A stretch of 63,998 bases of DNA, counting the filler, from Basidiobolus ranarum (Eukaryota), in the NCBI GenBank assembly GCA_040143965.1. It is 9 parts of 9 records of this genome, joined end to end, with 100 filler letters (N's around TTAATTAATTAA, not from the genome) between each part and the next. Parts side by side here need not be neighbours in the genome. Positions count along the whole stretch, not along the records: positions 14,461 to 21,586 come from JASJQH010008050.1; 8 more parts are not named here. One strand, written 5' to 3'. The notes beneath the pieces were generated by a model. It had not been told where the DNA came from. It saw nothing but the letters and a program-made list of their open reading frames with translations, and ran no database searches. This document shows positions 5,777-57,762 of this stretch, one piece after another (the stretch's first letter is position 1; each line of letters starts with the position of its first letter). The translations under genes were made by a program, and so were the position numbers.

Positions 5777-7133
5777 GCCGAGTGCTAGTAATTCTACTAC
5801 CTAACGACAAACCAATTGTTGATAGTTATTTTTTGGTTTTCAATTTGAAGTCTTCTTGTAGTTCTATATTTAAATTCAGTTTGTTCAGTAGATCTTACTT
5901 GTTTTAGATGCTTCTGCTACTTTCGTCTAAAAGAGACGGAGAACCAACATTGTGGAGGGCGAAGCACATGAAAATTTTGAATCATTGTATTTTCTTTGGT
6001 TCTCGCTACTCTTATGTATATGTTGATGTTCTTCTGATGTACATACAACTTAGCATTGAAAACCCTCCCCCCATGCTCTTTCTTCATCGCGAAACCTTTT
6101 CGCTGTTACCATTTATGTGCTACTGTCAGAACCTTCGTACCTTTTCTCCAACGATATCTATCCTATATGTCATGAAATGTCGAAACCACTATCTTTTTGC
6201 TTCTCCAATGACGCATTATTTTGCAGATGAAAGTTTATTTTTATATTTCCAGCTTGATCAATCGATAAATATGTACGTAATGAAATTAAAGATTATCACT
6301 TGAAAGCCTGGTCCACATACATATGTTAACACTCTGTTGTAATCAGTATCGAACAAGGAAGATTTGTGAGTGAACCAGATGACACGCACTGTACTACATC
6401 GCAAGAGAGCCCAGCGAGAGCACGCCGCGTCCACATATAAATGTATCACACTATATCATTAAGGACAATACCTAATTCAGGACAATCTGAATCCCATCGA
6501 ACGATATATCTAGTATTCTTATGACCTCGATTCGTCCATGCTTGCCACGACACTTTCAGCATTCCATTTGCTACCTGACTTGGCAGCCTTTACGGATGAA
6601 GAGTGGGAATTGGTTACACTAAGAATTACTCACACTGTATGAGGTCCCTTTCACTGGCGAATTTAAACCTTTCCAACTGGGATTGCTCATTCATTCCATT
6701 ACATCTCAATGCTGAGAGATTTAGCATCATCACACAAGCTCTTCCATATCCTTTTTAGGCAGGCCTAGTCAGCTAGTCCAGGATCGACGTGACTACGCTT
6801 TCTACAACATTAAGGGAATAAAAGTGGAAATCAAATCGGAAATTTCGAAATTACTTGATTTTAAGGTTCCCTTTGATCGATAGAATCTCGACTTAAATCA
6901 TCAGATTGACTGAAATCACGAGCATGTTTACCAGAGGTTTTAATGCGAGGTAGATTGGTTGCTGCCATTACCATTTCATCATAATACGAAATTGGCCTTT
7001 TCTGGGATCCAACCGCTGTTGGCATCACGTATACTGCAACCAAGCGAGAGGGCCCTGGAAATATGGAACTACAGATGAGTAAGTGTCATGATCTGACATT
7101 GTGATAAAAAAGTCTAGGTTGAATCTGGTATGC

Positions 7134-7233
7134 NNNNNNNNNNNNNNNNNNNNNNNNNNNNNNNNNNNNNNNNNNNNTTAATTAATTAANNNNNNNNNNN
7201 NNNNNNNNNNNNNNNNNNNNNNNNNNNNNNNNN
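7134..7233. other. Artificial contig linker
   Basis: 44 N + TTAATTAATTAA (stops in all six frames) + 44 N. Confidence 0.99.
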
Positions 7234-14360: not shown

Positions 14361-14460
14361 NNNNNNNNNNNNNNNNNNNNNNNNNNNNNNNNNNNNNNNN
14401 NNNNTTAATTAATTAANNNNNNNNNNNNNNNNNNNNNNNNNNNNNNNNNNNNNNNNNNNN
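14361..14460. other. Artificial contig linker
   Basis: N44-TTAATTAATTAA-N44. Confidence 0.99.
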
Positions 14461-15458
14461 GAGACTCTAGACTTCGCATTGTTCGGTGATTTCATACTTA
14501 ATCTTAATATGCTAGAGCGTAAACTTGAAAGCAACGAAGAGCGAGCCAGTGGTTTAACATCGGCAAGAGAATTAAGTATCGGAATCAAGTTATACTCAAT
14601 AGGAGATAACGTTCCTAGGTTATCGCTCAATACGCGAAGAGACATTGGTATTGCGTTGGTTGCAACTAAGTTGAAAGTTAGGAATTCCTGACAATAAACC
14701 AAAGTCCTAGATAATTAAAACATACCAAATTTCACAATGTTCTTTGGTACCCATCCCTTGGGATCCCCGTCTGCTACAAAGACCACCCTACATTTAGTAT
14801 TGTCTTCCGGCTCGGCAAATACACACATTCCCAAGAAATTAACATCCATTCGGAGCACACCTTTCTTCGTTGGGCATTTTTCATGGTCCATACTCTTTCC
14901 AACCATAACATATTTACCATCCTCCAACTTTTTCATAGTCGAAAAAAGTAGAACATCACGGGCCGATATGGGCCAGATAGGTTTAGTTCTTATATATTGA
15001 AAACGAGTAACTGGATCTACAGTTTCGACAATCTCCGCGTTATCGCAAACAACATCCCATTGTTTCCATCTATCTACATTTAACATGTATTCGAAAGCTA
15101 ACTCCGAAGTGCAGTCAAGGCGAGCCACTATTTTATATCCATAGCTCACTTTCGGATCTTGAGATATTTGAATAAAAGGCTCCTCAGTATGATGCAGCAC
15201 TTTCAGAGATTCGTCACTTTCCAAAGAGCTGTCCAAAGATTCAATAAACCGTGACAGCATTCTTTCACACTCTTGCGAATATTTATGCTCAAACACTAGT
15301 GTGAAGATGATTCACGCAATAAGTAACTAGAAAATGATATGAATGATCTAAGAAAAACTCCGCTTACTAAACTCCTCCTCTGACTTTCTGTCTGAAGGAT
15401 CTGAGGGGCTCTCCGGTTGGTTGGGGAGATCTAAAGAAGCTTTCGTGAGCGCAGGCAT
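14461..15458 (-). CDS. START-domain lipid-binding protein, 3' truncated
   Basis: RWKQWD, TKPIWPISARDV and DPKGWVPKNIV motifs of START domains; ATG at 15458, two GT-AG introns, last exon runs into the linker. Confidence 0.85.
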
Positions 15459-18400
15459 GGTACGGATATTTGAAGTCAACAACAAAAAATGTAGGATGAA
15501 GTGTGAGTGGCGTATGAAGACTTAGAGTTAATGTTATACAATCTATGAGTTGATGAAAGGATCGTAGAGCTATGACAAACGTTAAACGAAATTAGAATCT
15601 TCGAGGGTTAAAGTACTATAGATACACCGGACAGGCTATGGATACAAGAAGAACGAGATGTGAATTGTGTTCGAAGTTCAAATTTAGAAACGTAATGTGA
15701 CGATTTTTATACGATATGCCCAAGTATATATCAATTAGGATGAGTAACGATGGAAGATTAAGAGTAAGTGAGGATCCAGTCAGAAGAAAGAATGGTTAGT
15801 AGCTTGGGGAAATATACAAGAGCTGTTGAGCTGCCGTTGAAGAAAAAGATCAGATCAAGCTTTATAAAGGAAGGCTGAAAATCACACCCCAACCAACAGC
15901 TGTACTCAGTGCTTGTCAGGAAATAATGCAGGCGCAACGAGGGGAATTCCCGACGGTTAACTCGTTTCCAGCTGTAATAGGAAAGAATAGTTACACCAAA
16001 CAGTGTTTACAAGCTGCAGTCAATGTCGTAGTAGAATAATAACAATTTCAGAAAATAAAGATTGACAATAAGTTTCTGCTTAAGGCTCTCCGACACGGTG
16101 GTTCTACCTTATTGGCGAAAGGGGTCACAATTCCTTATTATTTTATTGTATGATATATAACATAGCAACTATTATCGAGGTTCTATTCGGAAGAATAAGG
16201 ACAATCCAAATTAGATCCACTTCCTGAATTGTATTTCTCTTCGAGATTAAGAACATAATAATGATTTAAAGGAAGCAGAAGAAACAGTAAAATTGGAATA
16301 TGAGACAACTACGGCCTAGAAAACACATACCATTCCAACTCTTTCTCTAAACTTTCAAACCTCAGCTGCATGAGCCAGGATCTTCAAGTAAGTGATTCAT
16401 CTTGTGCTAATTATGCTTGATCAGAAACCTGTATTGGTGAGCCTAGTGAGGGTAATATCTCCCTCATTATCTCGTCATCGCCCACGCCGAAGTCTCCTCA
16501 TTATTATGGTAATCAACTCAATAGCAGATCGCCATACATGAGTATGGGTCCATGTTTAATATTGAACTTGGACAGCATGAACGGATACATCATTCCGCAA
16601 CCAATGCAAAAACACCAGGGTCATTAATTTTCTATCGGCAGAATTGAACATCAAAACCCTTAAATGGTTAACGTGAAGCATCTTCACTAACAATCCTACT
16701 TGACTGATTGTTGGAATTAGATGCATCATACTATACATCCGTTGTCTATGCGTACTCTGATTCGCAAGCTGAGTTGAAACCTGTATTCGAGTCGAAACAC
16801 AGGGGAATGTCTAGGCTTCTCTTGATATGTGATAATGTAAGGCTGATCAAGACTTACAAAAAACCTGAGGTTTCAGCAGACGATTAATCCAAGGAAATTT
16901 CTCAAAAAGGTAGCAATGTGGGAATATATCACAGTGGCTCAAGACGAGCAAACGATATCATTTGTTGAAAGAAGTCAACTTAAATCTGTATCAATCCGTT
17001 AGTCTTATAGTTCTAATTGCTAGCATCCAATCTTTGATACGTAAACCGAGGCATCTGTAAATGCACGCATATAACTAAGAATGATATATAAGTAAATGCG
17101 TGCAGTAAATAAAAGTATATTCCTCTAGAAATAGCCTTACATCCATAGTATAACCATCTTAGATCCTTGTCGTCCTCCAAGATTGTTCTGAATATCGTCT
17201 GTTGGGTGTGGGATTTTATCTTCCATTGAATCCCAGCTTAGTCTGTCCGCTCCAAAGCTGGAGACATAGTAATGAATATGCATGGGTTATTTTTCTTTGG
17301 AGATTAGTTGAAGTAGGACGAAATTATGGAAGAGAAATGTACCAGCCAAAAAACACAAGAGCAGCATTGCAGATCGTTCTAGCATCTTAATCAACATTTG
17401 AGGTTAATGTCTCAACAGAAGTCTAACTACTCGATGGCAATCGCTATCTAGATGGTGCTAGCAGACTGGATCATAGAAAAGAATTATGACACAGAACCCT
17501 GAGTGATTTATACTATCTTAAGAATCATCTATGATCGAGTGGGCGCCTTTTACTCTAAATACTATGACTGCTGCATTATTATTGTATTTGCCCTGCAAAT
17601 CATCAAATATATGCATATCTCATGACCCTAGCCATAGCGCCATTATGAGCAATCATATATAGCAATCATTGTGGCGATAAATTCGATGGAACTAAGCACC
17701 GAGAACTTACTTCATAGTGAGTAAAACGACACATTCTTCTCTTAACCACATTAGTAACATTTATTCGGCATAAGGTAGTTGTTCACCATGTCTCAAAAAG
17801 AACTTGAAATACTTTCGAGAGGCTAATCAGGCGCGTAAGTAACAAGACCGAAATACCCTCCTGATGAGCCTCAATGATCACCGAAATGAAGCTTAAGTGG
17901 TCTCTCACCGTTTGTATGCCCATTACAGCGTTGGGACTCGGTCAATGTTTACCATTTGACTAGTCTTACTCAATTGTTCGTATTCTAGTGGTACAGAATT
18001 AGCAAATCTGGTGTTTACCATCTAAGATCGTTAGGCTCAGTAATATCTCGTTGGTATTAATGCTAATCAAATAGCTTATTAAGATATAATCAAAGATGTA
18101 TTGTTAACATACACAATTAATCCATTGGAGATAACAACCAAACCCACCAACCACCGATTCTGAACGCGACCAGCGTGACTTGGATTGCTATAAGTCCAGT
18201 CAAATATGTCTTGTCTGATGTGGCCAATGAACCCCATTTCTTCTCCTGGCAATCTCACATTTGCCATTGGTGGTTGTCACAATGGAGGTTGGTGCAGTAG
18301 TTACTCATATATATACTTCAATTGATTTAATTAAAGTGAATGGTTCCTCTTTTGCGCTCTTAGCCTTTTTTACCTGGTATATATTCCTCATCTCACCCTG

Positions 18401-18610
18401 GATCCCTGCTCCAAATATAATTTTGCGCATTATCCTAAAGTGTATATCATCTCTTCTCCCACTTTTGGCTACATTTCTTACACTAACTTTTGTAAAAGAC
18501 TCTGATTTATTTTGTCCCATATTGGTTTTTAGCGCACCAGAGAATAAATCTCATTACGTACTCTTATTTGGATCTTATTCTTAGAGGTGCAAGATTCAGT
18601 TAGAAACGGA

Positions 18611-20936
18611 ATGGACGGTGAACATTCGCTAGTAACAGATTCTCTCGATTTCCAATCTCCTTCTGATACAACTTTTTCGACTACGCTGCCGCCAATCTTA
18701 TCATCTCTTGGGCAATCTAAACCTACTATACCTTCCTTTCTGCCTCCTCCATCTACTCTCTCTGGAATCTCTTCGAATTCTATATCTACCACCTTTGGAG
18801 GCACATCTAATCTTCCTCCATTACGGGATCCTTTGCCAAAATCAGGGGAGGAGGCCAACCAAGCAAGTGTGATTTATAAAACGCAGCCAGATATAGAAGG
18901 TTCGGAGCCGGAAAGTGAATCTCACTCAAAACAACACTCAGGTGTAGATTTGAGTATACTGAATACTGACGAACTTCGTAGGCTTGCCCTGGAATCTAGG
19001 GAGAATTTGGAGTATCTTTCTACAAAAACTCACGAACCATCGCCGGGATCAGCGGATAAAGCCCGTTCCATATGGATCAGCACCTGGTAGTTATTTTTGT
19101 CATGAATAAGCTAAGCATTTCATTAAATGTTTGGTATAAAACATTAGGTTAGTTGACAATTATGAGCCGGCAGACGATCAAAGTGTCTCCAGAGAAGCTT
19201 TATATAGTCGGTATACCACATTTTGCGACAAAACAAGAGTACAGCATGTTAATTCGGCCAGCTTTGGCAAAATCGTACGATCAGTGTTTCCCAATATCAC
19301 TACGCGAAGACTAGGAACTCGCGGACAGTCTAAATATCCTTTTTTTGAAAAATATTCACAAGTTACAATTAGCAACGCTTATTCTGTCAACAAAACTTAA
19401 CTCATTTCAGATACGTATCACTATTGGGGAATCCATGCCAAGCCTTCTAGCGCAACTGCCTCATGGGAAAGGTTTGTAACTAGATCGAAACGAAACAAAT
19501 AAGAGTCATGGATAATATCTAACTACGGTTGATTTGAAGAGAAGTTAGTTCAGAGTCAACAAAGCCAGATCTCGACTTCAAGAGCAATACCTTTCATCTC
19601 ATAGAGTTTGACTGCCTTAATGAGGTAGAGCTTTTCCATACTTTGCCGCCTACTACAGCAATGGACTTTGTGTCGCTATATAGATCTCACTGCCAACAAG
19701 TCTATGAACTTGTCAGTAGCTTGAATTTTAACGAGGTAACATCACTCGCTCTGAGCTCTACATTTGCTAAATAGACCAATCAATATTTATGTCAACACAC
19801 TTAATTCTCTGGTAATCTTCTAATAGGTCTCCACAACTATCAAACAATTTTGGCAAGAACTAGACCCCTTCTATAAAAACCTGGCCAATAGCCCAGAAGT
19901 TCTTTATGTTATAGGAGCAGATGATATGCTACTTTACGATGTTAGTCCAATCCCATTTCATGTATTGGCCTTTATTTACAAACTAATGACTTTATTTCCA
20001 ATAGCATGTTTCCAGACTTCTGTTCACCAATGTTTTGACACCGCTTCCCTTGACTACGATTCAAGCCATTCAGAACTTTGCAAAGGATTATGAAGGTTGG
20101 GTTGTAGCATCACTCTACGGCTATTCTCAATCTCTTTATACGAAAAAACTAGAAGGTGACGCACACATCAAAATCAAGATATGAATTGTTGAAACTTTTT
20201 CTCATTGTTTGTTCCCAGTTGCTCGCACATTCACGGATGTTCTGATGAAACTCTGCTCCCTTAATCACTTGAGTCAATCGGCAGCATCCGTCGTACAGAA
20301 CAAAGATCAAACCTTGCAAATGGTTGCTGATTGGGCTAATGTTGATTTTGAATCATTACGTGATCAGGCGGCCATTGTATGTCACTGCTCCAAGGTTGAT
20401 TTGGTACAGATATGTATGTCATCTATGAAGATACCTCATACTTGTATACGTTCTTATCGTAGCTCTCTTATTTAGTGGAGATCGACATCAGACAGTTGTT
20501 GCAGTCTTCAGCTCAACTTGACCAATGGGTTTGTTGGATTGAAACAATATGCAGTAGGTTCCTAGGGGAGGTAAGTCAACGGGTTTCGATGAAATATAAC
20601 GTACGGAGGATTTCATGTGCTTACTTTTCCACTCATTAAGAGCCTTAACCCAGAAGGAATCGCCAATGTCCAATCGTTTGTGCTGAAATGGTCTTACTTT
20701 GGTTCGCTAATAGCTCGTGATCTTTCCATTCGCAGTGCTCAGAGTTTTGGTAAGTATATTCTAGTGCTTACTCATTCATCGACTGAATGAATCAAACTTC
20801 GCTTTTCTATTTAGGATCTTTCCAAATCTTAAAACTATTCATTGATGATTACGTCTATCATCTGGCGCAGAGGCAAATAGCCCAAGCAACAAGTGGTAGC
20901 AGACCACCATCAACTCGCACTTCTAACCTGCCATGA
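18611..20936 (+). CDS. RFX-family winged-helix transcription factor (multi-exon)
   Basis: Spliced DNA-binding domain WLVDNYE...VSREALYSRY...[35 protein letters not shown]; C-terminal dimerisation region LKWSYFGSLIARDLSIRSAQSFGSFQILKLFIDDY; TGA at 20934-20936. Confidence 0.92.
19334..19414 (+). other. U12-type (minor spliceosome) AT-AC intron in the RFX gene
   Basis: 5' ATATCCTTT, branch-like AACTTAAC ending at 19401, 3' AC at 19413-19414. Removal restores [10 protein letters not shown]; retention hits TAA. Confidence 0.88.
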
Positions 20937-21586
20937 TACAACCACCCCTTAGGGTACCACCCTGATATTTTCTTTACCGTTTAGTTAAGTTTTGTTTGCG
21001 ATTTTGAATATATGCTTTAATAAACTTGGTGAAGGATTGCGTACATGTCATATTTTTCGAACTTCAAAGGCACTGGGGTGATTTAGACCTTTTTTAGTCA
21101 GACGGACAGTATGTTTATTCTGTCTGGTAACTAAACAGTTACTCAATCATTTATTAGATGAGAAGCATTTTCGTTGCTCCGGTGTGTGTATAAATATGTT
21201 CAAATACATGACATCTCGGTTTAAACCTAAATAATATACACATAAATATTAATTCCAGTCGGAATGAAACAGAATCCATTGAAAATAAAATCTAATTAAA
21301 TCGGAGGTATTATAGCATGTTTGCTAAGGATTTCTGCAGAGATTACTCTTAAATGACCACGACATTGAACACACAAGAATAGGATAACTCTTAACTCGCA
21401 ATTTAATATAACGCTATTCGTGGAGCGTCTACAGCCGGCATTAATATTGATATATGGACCTACTTGGTTAAAATCCTAACCAAGTGCTTCTATTGCGAAC
21501 TTCGATATTTTCATCACTCAAGTGTTCAGGGCCAAATCGCTCAAATACACGCTCTATTTTTACCTGGATCTGAAGGCAGCAGTGGC

Positions 21587-21686
21587 NNNNNNNNNNNNNN
21601 NNNNNNNNNNNNNNNNNNNNNNNNNNNNNNTTAATTAATTAANNNNNNNNNNNNNNNNNNNNNNNNNNNNNNNNNNNNNNNNNNNN
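21587..21686. other. Artificial contig linker
   Basis: N44-TTAATTAATTAA-N44. Confidence 0.99.
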
Positions 21687-28806: not shown

Positions 28807-28906
28807 NNNNNNNNNNNNNNNNNNNNNNNNNNNNNNNNNNNNNNNNNNNNTTAATTAATTAANNNNNNNNNNNNNNNNNNNNNNNNNNNNNNNNNNNNNN
28901 NNNNNN
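28807..28906. other. Artificial contig linker
   Basis: N44-TTAATTAATTAA-N44. Confidence 0.99.
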
Positions 28907-32273: not shown

Positions 32274-33488
32274 ATGCGCTTTCAGTATACTTCCTTAGCG
32301 CTCTTGGCCTTATATAAATTAGCCAAAGCTCAAGAAGCAGAGTCCTCCACCTTGGCAGAAATTGACCCTGCCTGGATTAGTGAATACGACCTCTCAGGTG
32401 TGCCAGATGTCGCACCAAGACCAATGGGATCTGGTACCTGTCCGAACTCTCAATGTGGGCCGAAAGACTGTGAGAACTGTTGGGAAACGTGTGGTAATTG
32501 TGCCTTACCTGATGACATCTATGGCTGTCAAGCCGGTCAGTGGGCTCTAACATTTGACGATGGACCATCTCAATATACATCGCAACTACTTGATATCCTT
32601 GCTGCTGCCAACGTTAAAGCCACATTCCAAATGATCGGCTCAAATGTGATCCAATTTCCAGATGTAGTTAAAAGAGCTTATGATGAAGGTCACCAAATCG
32701 CTTCTCACACATGGTCACATCCACATTTAATGTCTCTCTCTAACGATCAGATTGTCGCTGAGGTAAAAGCTACGGAGAATGCTCTCCTTAATATAACTGG
32801 GGCAAAGCCTGCTTATATTCGCCCACCTTATGGTGAGGCAGATGATCGTGTTAAAGCCATCTTCAAGGCAATGGGATATCATACTCTGTTATGGAACATG
32901 GATACCCTGGATTGGGATATTTCGGAGAAGAAGGAAAATGCTAGTCTCATCCTAGACTCTTTCAAGTCCGCTCTAACTAAAGGTACTGATCTTAACGCCC
33001 ACAACGACCCCGGATTCATCTCATTGCAGCATGATATTTATATCGATACTGTTCAACAGACACCCAACATAGAACAACTTCTGGCTCAGTATAATTTCCA
33101 TCTTGTTCTTGCTTACGAATGTGCCAACTTGCCCCCATATCAAAACCTGAGTCAGAACACTACCACTGTACCTAGCAGTACTCCTACCTCCAGCAGAAAT
33201 AGTACTACTAATATTTCTGAGCCTAATGATGACGCTGACTCTAATTCAGGCGGTAATGATGATTCAGACTCCGCCAGTGCCCCAGATGAAGATGATTCTA
33301 ACACTAGTGCCCCTGGTGATGTCCCTGATGATGACTCTAACACCAGGGTTGTATCTAAAAATACAGTTTCATTATCGAAACGAGGCGAGATCAACTCTTC
33401 AGGCAGAACATCAAATATGTCAACTTATAATGTATCACTCCACTCTTTCCTATTCATACTCTTTTCTTCACATTTCCTATTGGCTTAG
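32274..33488 (+). CDS. Chitin/polysaccharide deacetylase (CE4, NodB domain), secreted, probably GPI-anchored
   Basis: Signal peptide; TFDDGP, HTWSHPHL, RPPYG, DTLDW and LQHD motifs; Ser/Thr/Asp-rich stalk; hydrophobic C-terminus; TATA-like TATATAAG at ~32203. Confidence 0.93.
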   Translation: MRFQYTSLALLALYKLAKAQEAESSTLAEIDPAWISEYDLSGVPDVAPRPMGSGTCPNSQCGPKDCENCWETCGNCALPDDIYGCQAGQWALTFDDGPSQYTSQLLDILAAANVKATFQMIGSNVIQFPDVVKRAYDEGHQIASHTWSHPHLMSLSNDQIVAEVKATENALLNITGAKPAYIRPPYGEADDRVKAIFKAMGYHTLLWNMDTLDWDISEKKENASLILDSFKSALTKGTDLNAHNDPGFISLQHDIYIDTVQQTPNIEQLLAQYNFHLVLAYECANLPPYQNLSQNTTTVPSSTPTSSRNSTTNISEPNDDADSNSGGNDDSDSASAPDEDDSNTSAPGDVPDDDSNTRVVSKNTVSLSKRGEINSSGRTSNMSTYNVSLHSFLFILFSSHFLLA

Positions 33489-36025: not shown

Positions 36026-36125
36026 NNNNNNNNNNNNNNNNNNNNNNNNNNNNNNNNNNNNNNNNNNNNTTAATTAATTAANNNNNNNNNNNNNNNNNNN
36101 NNNNNNNNNNNNNNNNNNNNNNNNN
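36026..36125. other. Artificial contig linker
   Basis: N44-TTAATTAATTAA-N44. Confidence 0.99.
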
Positions 36126-43241: not shown

Positions 43242-43341
43242 NNNNNNNNNNNNNNNNNNNNNNNNNNNNNNNNNNNNNNNNNNNNTTAATTAATTAANNN
43301 NNNNNNNNNNNNNNNNNNNNNNNNNNNNNNNNNNNNNNNNN
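43242..43341. other. Artificial contig linker
   Basis: N44-TTAATTAATTAA-N44. Confidence 0.99.
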
Positions 43342-50454: not shown

Positions 50455-50554
50455 NNNNNNNNNNNNNNNNNNNNNNNNNNNNNNNNNNNNNNNNNNNNTT
50501 AATTAATTAANNNNNNNNNNNNNNNNNNNNNNNNNNNNNNNNNNNNNNNNNNNN
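50455..50554. other. Artificial contig linker
   Basis: N44-TTAATTAATTAA-N44. Confidence 0.99.
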
Positions 50555-57662: not shown

Positions 57663-57762
57663 NNNNNNNNNNNNNNNNNNNNNNNNNNNNNNNNNNNNNN
57701 NNNNNNTTAATTAATTAANNNNNNNNNNNNNNNNNNNNNNNNNNNNNNNNNNNNNNNNNNNN
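57663..57762. other. Artificial contig linker
   Basis: N44-TTAATTAATTAA-N44. Confidence 0.99.

Follow-up and report, generated by a model that had tools for sequence, protein, structure and literature searches.

The stretch of Basidiobolus ranarum DNA analyzed here carries a gene for an RFX transcription factor, whose features are collected in Table 1 together with those of its surroundings. The window, i.e., the whole stretch of 63,998 nt that was analyzed, is an artificial chain of contigs, and gene neighborhood across the spacers is therefore meaningless; physical linkage to the RFX gene extends over 14461-21586 only. All spacers are identical (44 N + TTAATTAATTAA + 44 N) and contain stops in every frame, and the pieces shrink slowly along the window (7133, 7127, 7126, 7120, 7119, 7116, 7113 and 7108 nt). 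On the same piece as the RFX gene, an open frame on the opposite strand was found to encode a START lipid-binding domain (PF01852, E 1.3e-23).

Table 1. Coordinates of the RFX gene, of the putative AT-AC intron and of other features (positions along the whole window)
Feature	Position	Strand	Description and basis
RFX transcription-factor gene	18611..20936	+	10 exons, 566 codons + stop; in-script model, blastp, tblastn
Piece carrying the RFX gene	14461..21586		7126 nt; edges are artificial N44-TTAATTAATTAA-N44 spacers
Spacers	7134-7233, 14361-14460, 21587-21686, 28807-28906, 36026-36125, 43242-43341, 50455-50554, 57663-57762
START-domain open frame	14718-15311	-	198 aa
Exon 1	18611-19086	+	in-script gene model
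Exon 2	19148..19333	+	most of the RFX DNA-binding domain; ends with AA of the split Lys codon
Putative U12-type AT-AC intron	19334..19414	+	81 nt, phase 2, GC 0.27; read from sequence and junction test
5' splice site ATATCCTTT	19334..19342	+	read directly from sequence
Branch-site-like CTTAAC	19396..19401	+	presumed branch A (second A) at 19400, 14 nt from last intron base
In-frame TAA	19398..19400	+	terminates the protein upon intron retention; stop of the public 242-aa model
CAG	19408..19410	+	4 nt upstream of the AC end; 10 nt from branch A
3' terminal AC	19413..19414	+	read directly from sequence
Exon 3	19415..19471	+	opens with G completing AAG (Lys), then YHYWGIHAKPSS..., last strand of the domain
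Exons 4-10	19540..20936	+	RFX BCD domain; Pfam PF25340 matches
Exons 4-7	19540-19735, 19827-19940, 20005-20155, 20219-20413	+	gene model
Exons 8-10	20476-20570, 20641-20749, 20815-20936	+	gene model
Polysaccharide (chitin-type) deacetylase exon	32505-32897	+	PF01522, E 4e-40

Based on the Pfam search, the region 19140-19333 encodes a winged-helix DNA-binding domain (DBD) matching positions 8-68 of the 79 of RFX_DNA_binding (PF02257, E 3e-24). Exon 2 was also aligned with residues 5-65 of 76 of the human RFX1 DBD chain 1dp7_P in the PDB (E 5.6e-15). Given that the match of exon 2 stops at domain position 68, the rest of the DBD must be encoded downstream. The frame of exon 2 belongs to an ORF at 19140-19400, which reads ...RRLGTRGQS and continues with AAA TAT CCT... 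up to the in-frame TAA, the stop that the original prediction had named as the consequence of intron retention. An unspliced RNA codes for 242 aa only, and its product ends 11 positions short of the 79-position Pfam DBD profile and has no BCD domain at all. When exactly 81 nt were removed, the frame and the conserved RFX protein sequence were restored, and a 566-aa ORF of 10 exons with a single terminal stop was obtained. The remaining eight introns of the gene are of the GT-AG type and 61-91 nt in length.

The seven exons 4-10 matched PF25340 in order, covering positions 1-23, 24-61, 63-111, 113-175, 179-205, 218-245 and 247-269 of 270. The E-values of the single exons ranged from 0.089 to 5.5e-14; three exons scored above the 24-bit cut-off (30.8, 52.7 and 29.1 bits), and the other exons reached 12.6-18.7 bits. 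The gene thus has a BCD (B, C, dimerization) region downstream of the DBD, as in RFX proteins of the RFX1-4/6/8 type. Because exons 4-10 tile BCD_RFX in order, the gene is intact downstream of the intron, which argues against a pseudogene. Moreover, residues 1-566 of the model were aligned by blastp with residues 1-559 of the Basidiobolus meristosporus protein P0005 at 55.8% identity, and the blastp alignment with P0004 was unbroken across the junction.

To characterize the junction, the sequence of 18700-20100 was read, and all motifs of the original prediction were found where it had placed them. Introns of the minor class have the donor consensus RTATCCTT and the branch consensus TTCCTTAAC. 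From its first base, the intron presents ATATCCTTT, in agreement with RTATCCTT and with the AT-AC subtype of U12 introns, and it has the terminal dinucleotides AT...AC. A TCCTTAAC-like motif was found within the window of ~10-20 nt from the 3' splice site, the A of CTTAAC lying at 14 nt. Counted against the U12 reading, this branch site agrees with TTCCTTAAC at 6/9 positions, and the bases upstream of CTTAAC are AAA where the consensus has TTC. The exon sequence from 19415 onward is G TAT CAC TAT TGG GGA ATC. Donor, branch, AC end and frame-restoring excision all agree with the U12-type AT-AC assignment that had been proposed. Judged by these sequence features, 19334-19414 is very probably a genuine U12-dependent AT-AC intron that splits a Lys codon in phase 2 within an RFX1-4/6-type gene of B. 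ranarum.

A short direct repeat was observed at the two ends of the intron, which starts with (A)TATC at 19334-19338 and is followed by an exon starting with (G)TATC at 19415-19419. Owing to this repeat, the read-through and the spliced RNA both encode K-Y at the junction, and homology alone allows six equivalent junction offsets, one of which is AT-AC. The repeat could be due to chance or could be a trace of the origin of the intron.

The alternative junctions were analyzed by combining the donors at 19300-19359 with the acceptors at 19380-19439, which gave 3600 donor/acceptor pairs. Of the pairs with recognized termini, AT(19334)-AC(19414) alone restored the conserved RFX wing/strand sequence. 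No in-frame GT-AG pair was present among the 3600. The single in-frame GC-AG pair (19321-19410) removes the conserved RGQSK.

Subsequently, the motifs were compared with chance expectation. Taken alone, the 8-mer ATATCCTT is at chance level, with 3 copies in the window versus 3.9 expected from shuffles, and this was counted against the U12 reading. A loose pattern of donor, branch and end was found 3 times in the window (simulated mean 0.66), and at least one such pattern occurred in 143 of 300 simulations. The joint chance of a donor at one of the six offsets and of CTTAAC at a usable distance was ~5e-7, as calculated from base composition. What exceeds chance is that the motifs coincide at the single site for which protein homology requires an intron.

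Sites resembling the donor, [AG]TATCC[TC]T, were found at seven positions of the window, and examination of these seven revealed no second U12 intron within it. Two of the sites are among the three matches to the loose pattern: the site at 32593, which lies inside the deacetylase coding exon, and the site at 2465 on the minus strand, which has no ORF to either side. No branch motif lies within usable range of the site at 6746. In the deacetylase exon, ATATCCTT is ordinary coding sequence (D-I-L).

Three other explanations of the locus were weighed. The 81 nt might be kept, and the RFX gene would then be truncated or in decay, with the 242-aa protein as its only product. The public model P0001 does end at the TAA, but the gene continues for ~1.5 kb downstream with seven exons, GT-AG introns, no stops and a collinear BCD_RFX domain, and the identity of 55.8% to the B. 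meristosporus protein is full length. A decaying tail would not remain open and conserved, and we therefore regard truncation as improbable. A different junction is the least probable of the three. The GC-AG pair 19321-19410 is in frame, but it would remove the invariant RGQSK of the wing and would use the poor donor GCGGAC. The U12 donor might also be joined to the CAG at 19408-19410, which lies 10 nt from the branch A; the frame then shifts, as had been noted before, and the downstream frame hits stops, so that use of this CAG could yield a minor unproductive isoform at most.

The same AT-AC junction might instead be processed by the major (U2-type) spliceosome or by another non-canonical route. 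Rare U2-type AT-AC introns exist, and a U2-like donor of this kind reads ATAAGT. The donor observed here is the full minor-class ATATCCTTT and not ATAAGT, CTTAAC is found at a distance of 14 nt from the intron end, and a long pyrimidine tract is absent. In addition, the available text of PMC10639083 and PMC11347168 documents an abundance of minor introns in the genus. A U2 route is thus very unlikely, somewhat more so than truncation, and U12-dependent splicing of the AT-AC intron is the reading followed below.

The AT-AC intron is outside the public gene models of the genus. P0001, the hypothetical protein K7432_012843 of B. ranarum, is identical to the window at 242/242 residues and is composed of exon 1, exon 2 and the intron read through to the TAA. 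P0002, the paralog K7432_004217 of B. ranarum (241 aa), reads through as well, with its stop 13 residues past ...RG. In P0005, the JGI model of B. meristosporus, ...SASFGKI is followed by an out-of-frame stretch, and the end of the domain is lost. All three public models of the genus are therefore wrong at this junction (two by read-through and one by mis-splicing), just as had been predicted for gene finders that expect GT-AG introns. After the junction position, P0002 reads K-Y-L. As CCT cannot encode Leu, the donor of the paralog cannot be ATATCC, and this was counted against the U12 reading. The introns of K7432_004217 and of the B. meristosporus ortholog K493DRAFT_342260 were deduced from faulty protein models only; judged from these, the RFX paralogs of B. 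ranarum do not share an identical U12 donor.

The AT-AC intron would correct both public B. ranarum RFX models, which are cut to 241-242 aa with loss of the BCD, and the same finding would correct the B. meristosporus RFX model, in which the end of the DNA-binding domain is lost. According to the available text of PMC10639083, intronIC moves annotated boundaries by about 10 bp only. Given this small shift and the absence of the RFX intron from the public models, catalogs that depend on annotation probably do not count it, and it is probably not among the published counts of Basidiobolus minor introns. Such annotation-dependent counts in Basidiobolus would then be underestimates.

To compare the position of the intron with that in other RFX genes, metagenome contigs were scanned with an RFX alignment, and the 80 loci obtained were sorted by hand. 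The sequence was continuous through ...RRLGTRGxS(K/R)YHY... in 41 of the 80, some of which may be transcript contigs, so that this class does not prove intron absence. In 11 loci (L008, L018, L060, L070 and L073-L079), a GT donor directly follows the second base of this Lys/Arg codon, i.e., lies at the Basidiobolus position and phase, and an AG acceptor followed by the YHYYG exon was visible in five of these (L008, L060, L077, L078 and L079). An intron followed the first base of the preceding Gly codon in 4 loci and the second base of the Arg codon ahead of that Gly in 15. Six loci were of unclear class, the contig ended at the site in two, and the motif was lacking in one. Mite RFX4-like proteins share 98-100% identity with the exon of L008. 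In the predicted primate RFX4 isoform P0053, ...RGQSK is joined directly to a later exon, and the predicted primate RFX4 isoforms P0050 and P0052 break one residue earlier than P0053. At the protein level, these isoforms fit a vertebrate RFX4 exon boundary at or next to the same residue.

The animal RFX4-like intron shares the Basidiobolus position and phase, between the second and third bases of the Lys/Arg codon that precedes YHYYGI. Unlike the Basidiobolus intron, the animal introns are of the major class, with GTAAGT-, GTTTGT- or GTAGGT-type donors and AG ends. The 11 loci, including that of the mite RFX4, thus point to a position that is common to the fungus (U12-type) and to animals (U2-type). 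An ATATCC donor was found at the site in 0/80 metagenomic RFX loci, and this was counted against the U12 reading. The comparison with orthologs that had been suggested at the outset accordingly found the same position and phase in animal RFX4-like genes but not the U12 donor.

Two further observations were made among the 80 loci. Six related loci (L035 and L037-L041) read ...RRLGTRQASSC(H/Q/L)YC... after the conserved Arg, where none of the three intron positions fits; a GC-type or other unusual donor may be hidden there. The RFX4-like loci L007 and L008 have DBD exons that are 95-100% identical. The Lys/Arg codon is interrupted by a GT-AG intron in one of the two loci, and the second locus is continuous, reflecting either intron loss or a transcript-derived contig.

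In the best explanation of the locus, 19334-19414 would occupy an old RFX intron position, which is U2-type GT-AG in animal RFX4-like genes. The RFX family would then offer a case in which one position is occupied by a U12 intron in a fungus and by a U2 intron in animals. It is possible, although we consider it doubtful, that opisthokont RFX genes inherited the phase-2 intron before YHY(Y/W)GI from their common ancestor and that the class of this intron was switched. In one version, a U12 ancestor would have been kept in Basidiobolus (and perhaps in vertebrate RFX5/RFX7) and converted to U2 in animal RFX4; in the other version, the conversion would have been from U2 to U12 in Basidiobolus. If true, a U2-to-U12 conversion would bear on how Basidiobolus reached the top minor-intron density among fungi.

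The pairing of U11 and U12 with their sites is established knowledge of minor splicing. In the RFX transcript, U11 would pair with ATATCCTTT at the donor and U12 with the CTTAAC branch site, the 81 nt would be excised, and AA would be joined to G to complete the Lys codon. With this junction, the winged helix would regain its wing-1/beta-3 part, and the excision would open the reading frame into the BCD domain. That slow splicing of this intron gates the production of DNA-binding-competent RFX is speculation.

That Dikarya lost their minor introns and that some early-diverging fungi kept them, as invoked in the original prediction, agrees with the available text of PMC10639083. For B. meristosporus, 249 minor introns (0.554%) are given there, the highest density in fungi (Larue and Roy, 2023, PMC10639083). 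In the parts of the second catalog that were available (Olthof et al., 2024, PMC11347168), 237 minor introns are reported for the same species, together with U11, U12, U6atac and a divergent candidate U4atac. Rfam matches were 0 in the 64-kb window. A minor spliceosome in B. ranarum would be consistent with this literature on its congener. As the minor spliceosome of B. meristosporus is already published, the proposal is not new for the genus, and the RFX intron leaves unchanged what is known on which fungi keep the minor spliceosome.

Like the RFX intron, the minor introns of B. meristosporus have the ATATCCTT donor, a TTAAC-type branch near the 3' end, a terminal AC and a non-zero phase. Unlike these catalogued introns, the RFX intron lies outside the public models: that of B. 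ranarum reads through it, and that of B. meristosporus is mis-spliced there.

In vertebrates, minor introns have been described in other members of the RFX family. The available part of the PMC11347168 supplement has entries classed as 'minor' for human RFX5, mouse Rfx5 and Rfx7 and zebrafish rfx7a, among them the introns 1:151344279-151344416(-) of human RFX5 and 9:72607740-72610303(+) of mouse Rfx7. RFX4 has 0 occurrences in that part of the supplement, and 'RFX' is absent from the main text of PMC10639083 and of PMC11347168 as far as these were available. RFX5 and RFX7 are called minor-intron genes in the accessible portion of a bioRxiv preprint (10.64898/2026.08.20.745718), according to which rfx7b needs its U12 intron removed. 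RFX5 and RFX7, vertebrate members of the family, depend on minor splicing. These genes and the Basidiobolus gene belong to the same family and both have a minor-class intron, the vertebrate introns being listed by genome coordinates. The two differ in domain content: RFX5 and RFX7 are described in the accessible portion of the same preprint (10.64898/2026.08.20.745718) as lacking the BCD/dimerization region, whereas the Basidiobolus gene has the BCD according to Pfam.
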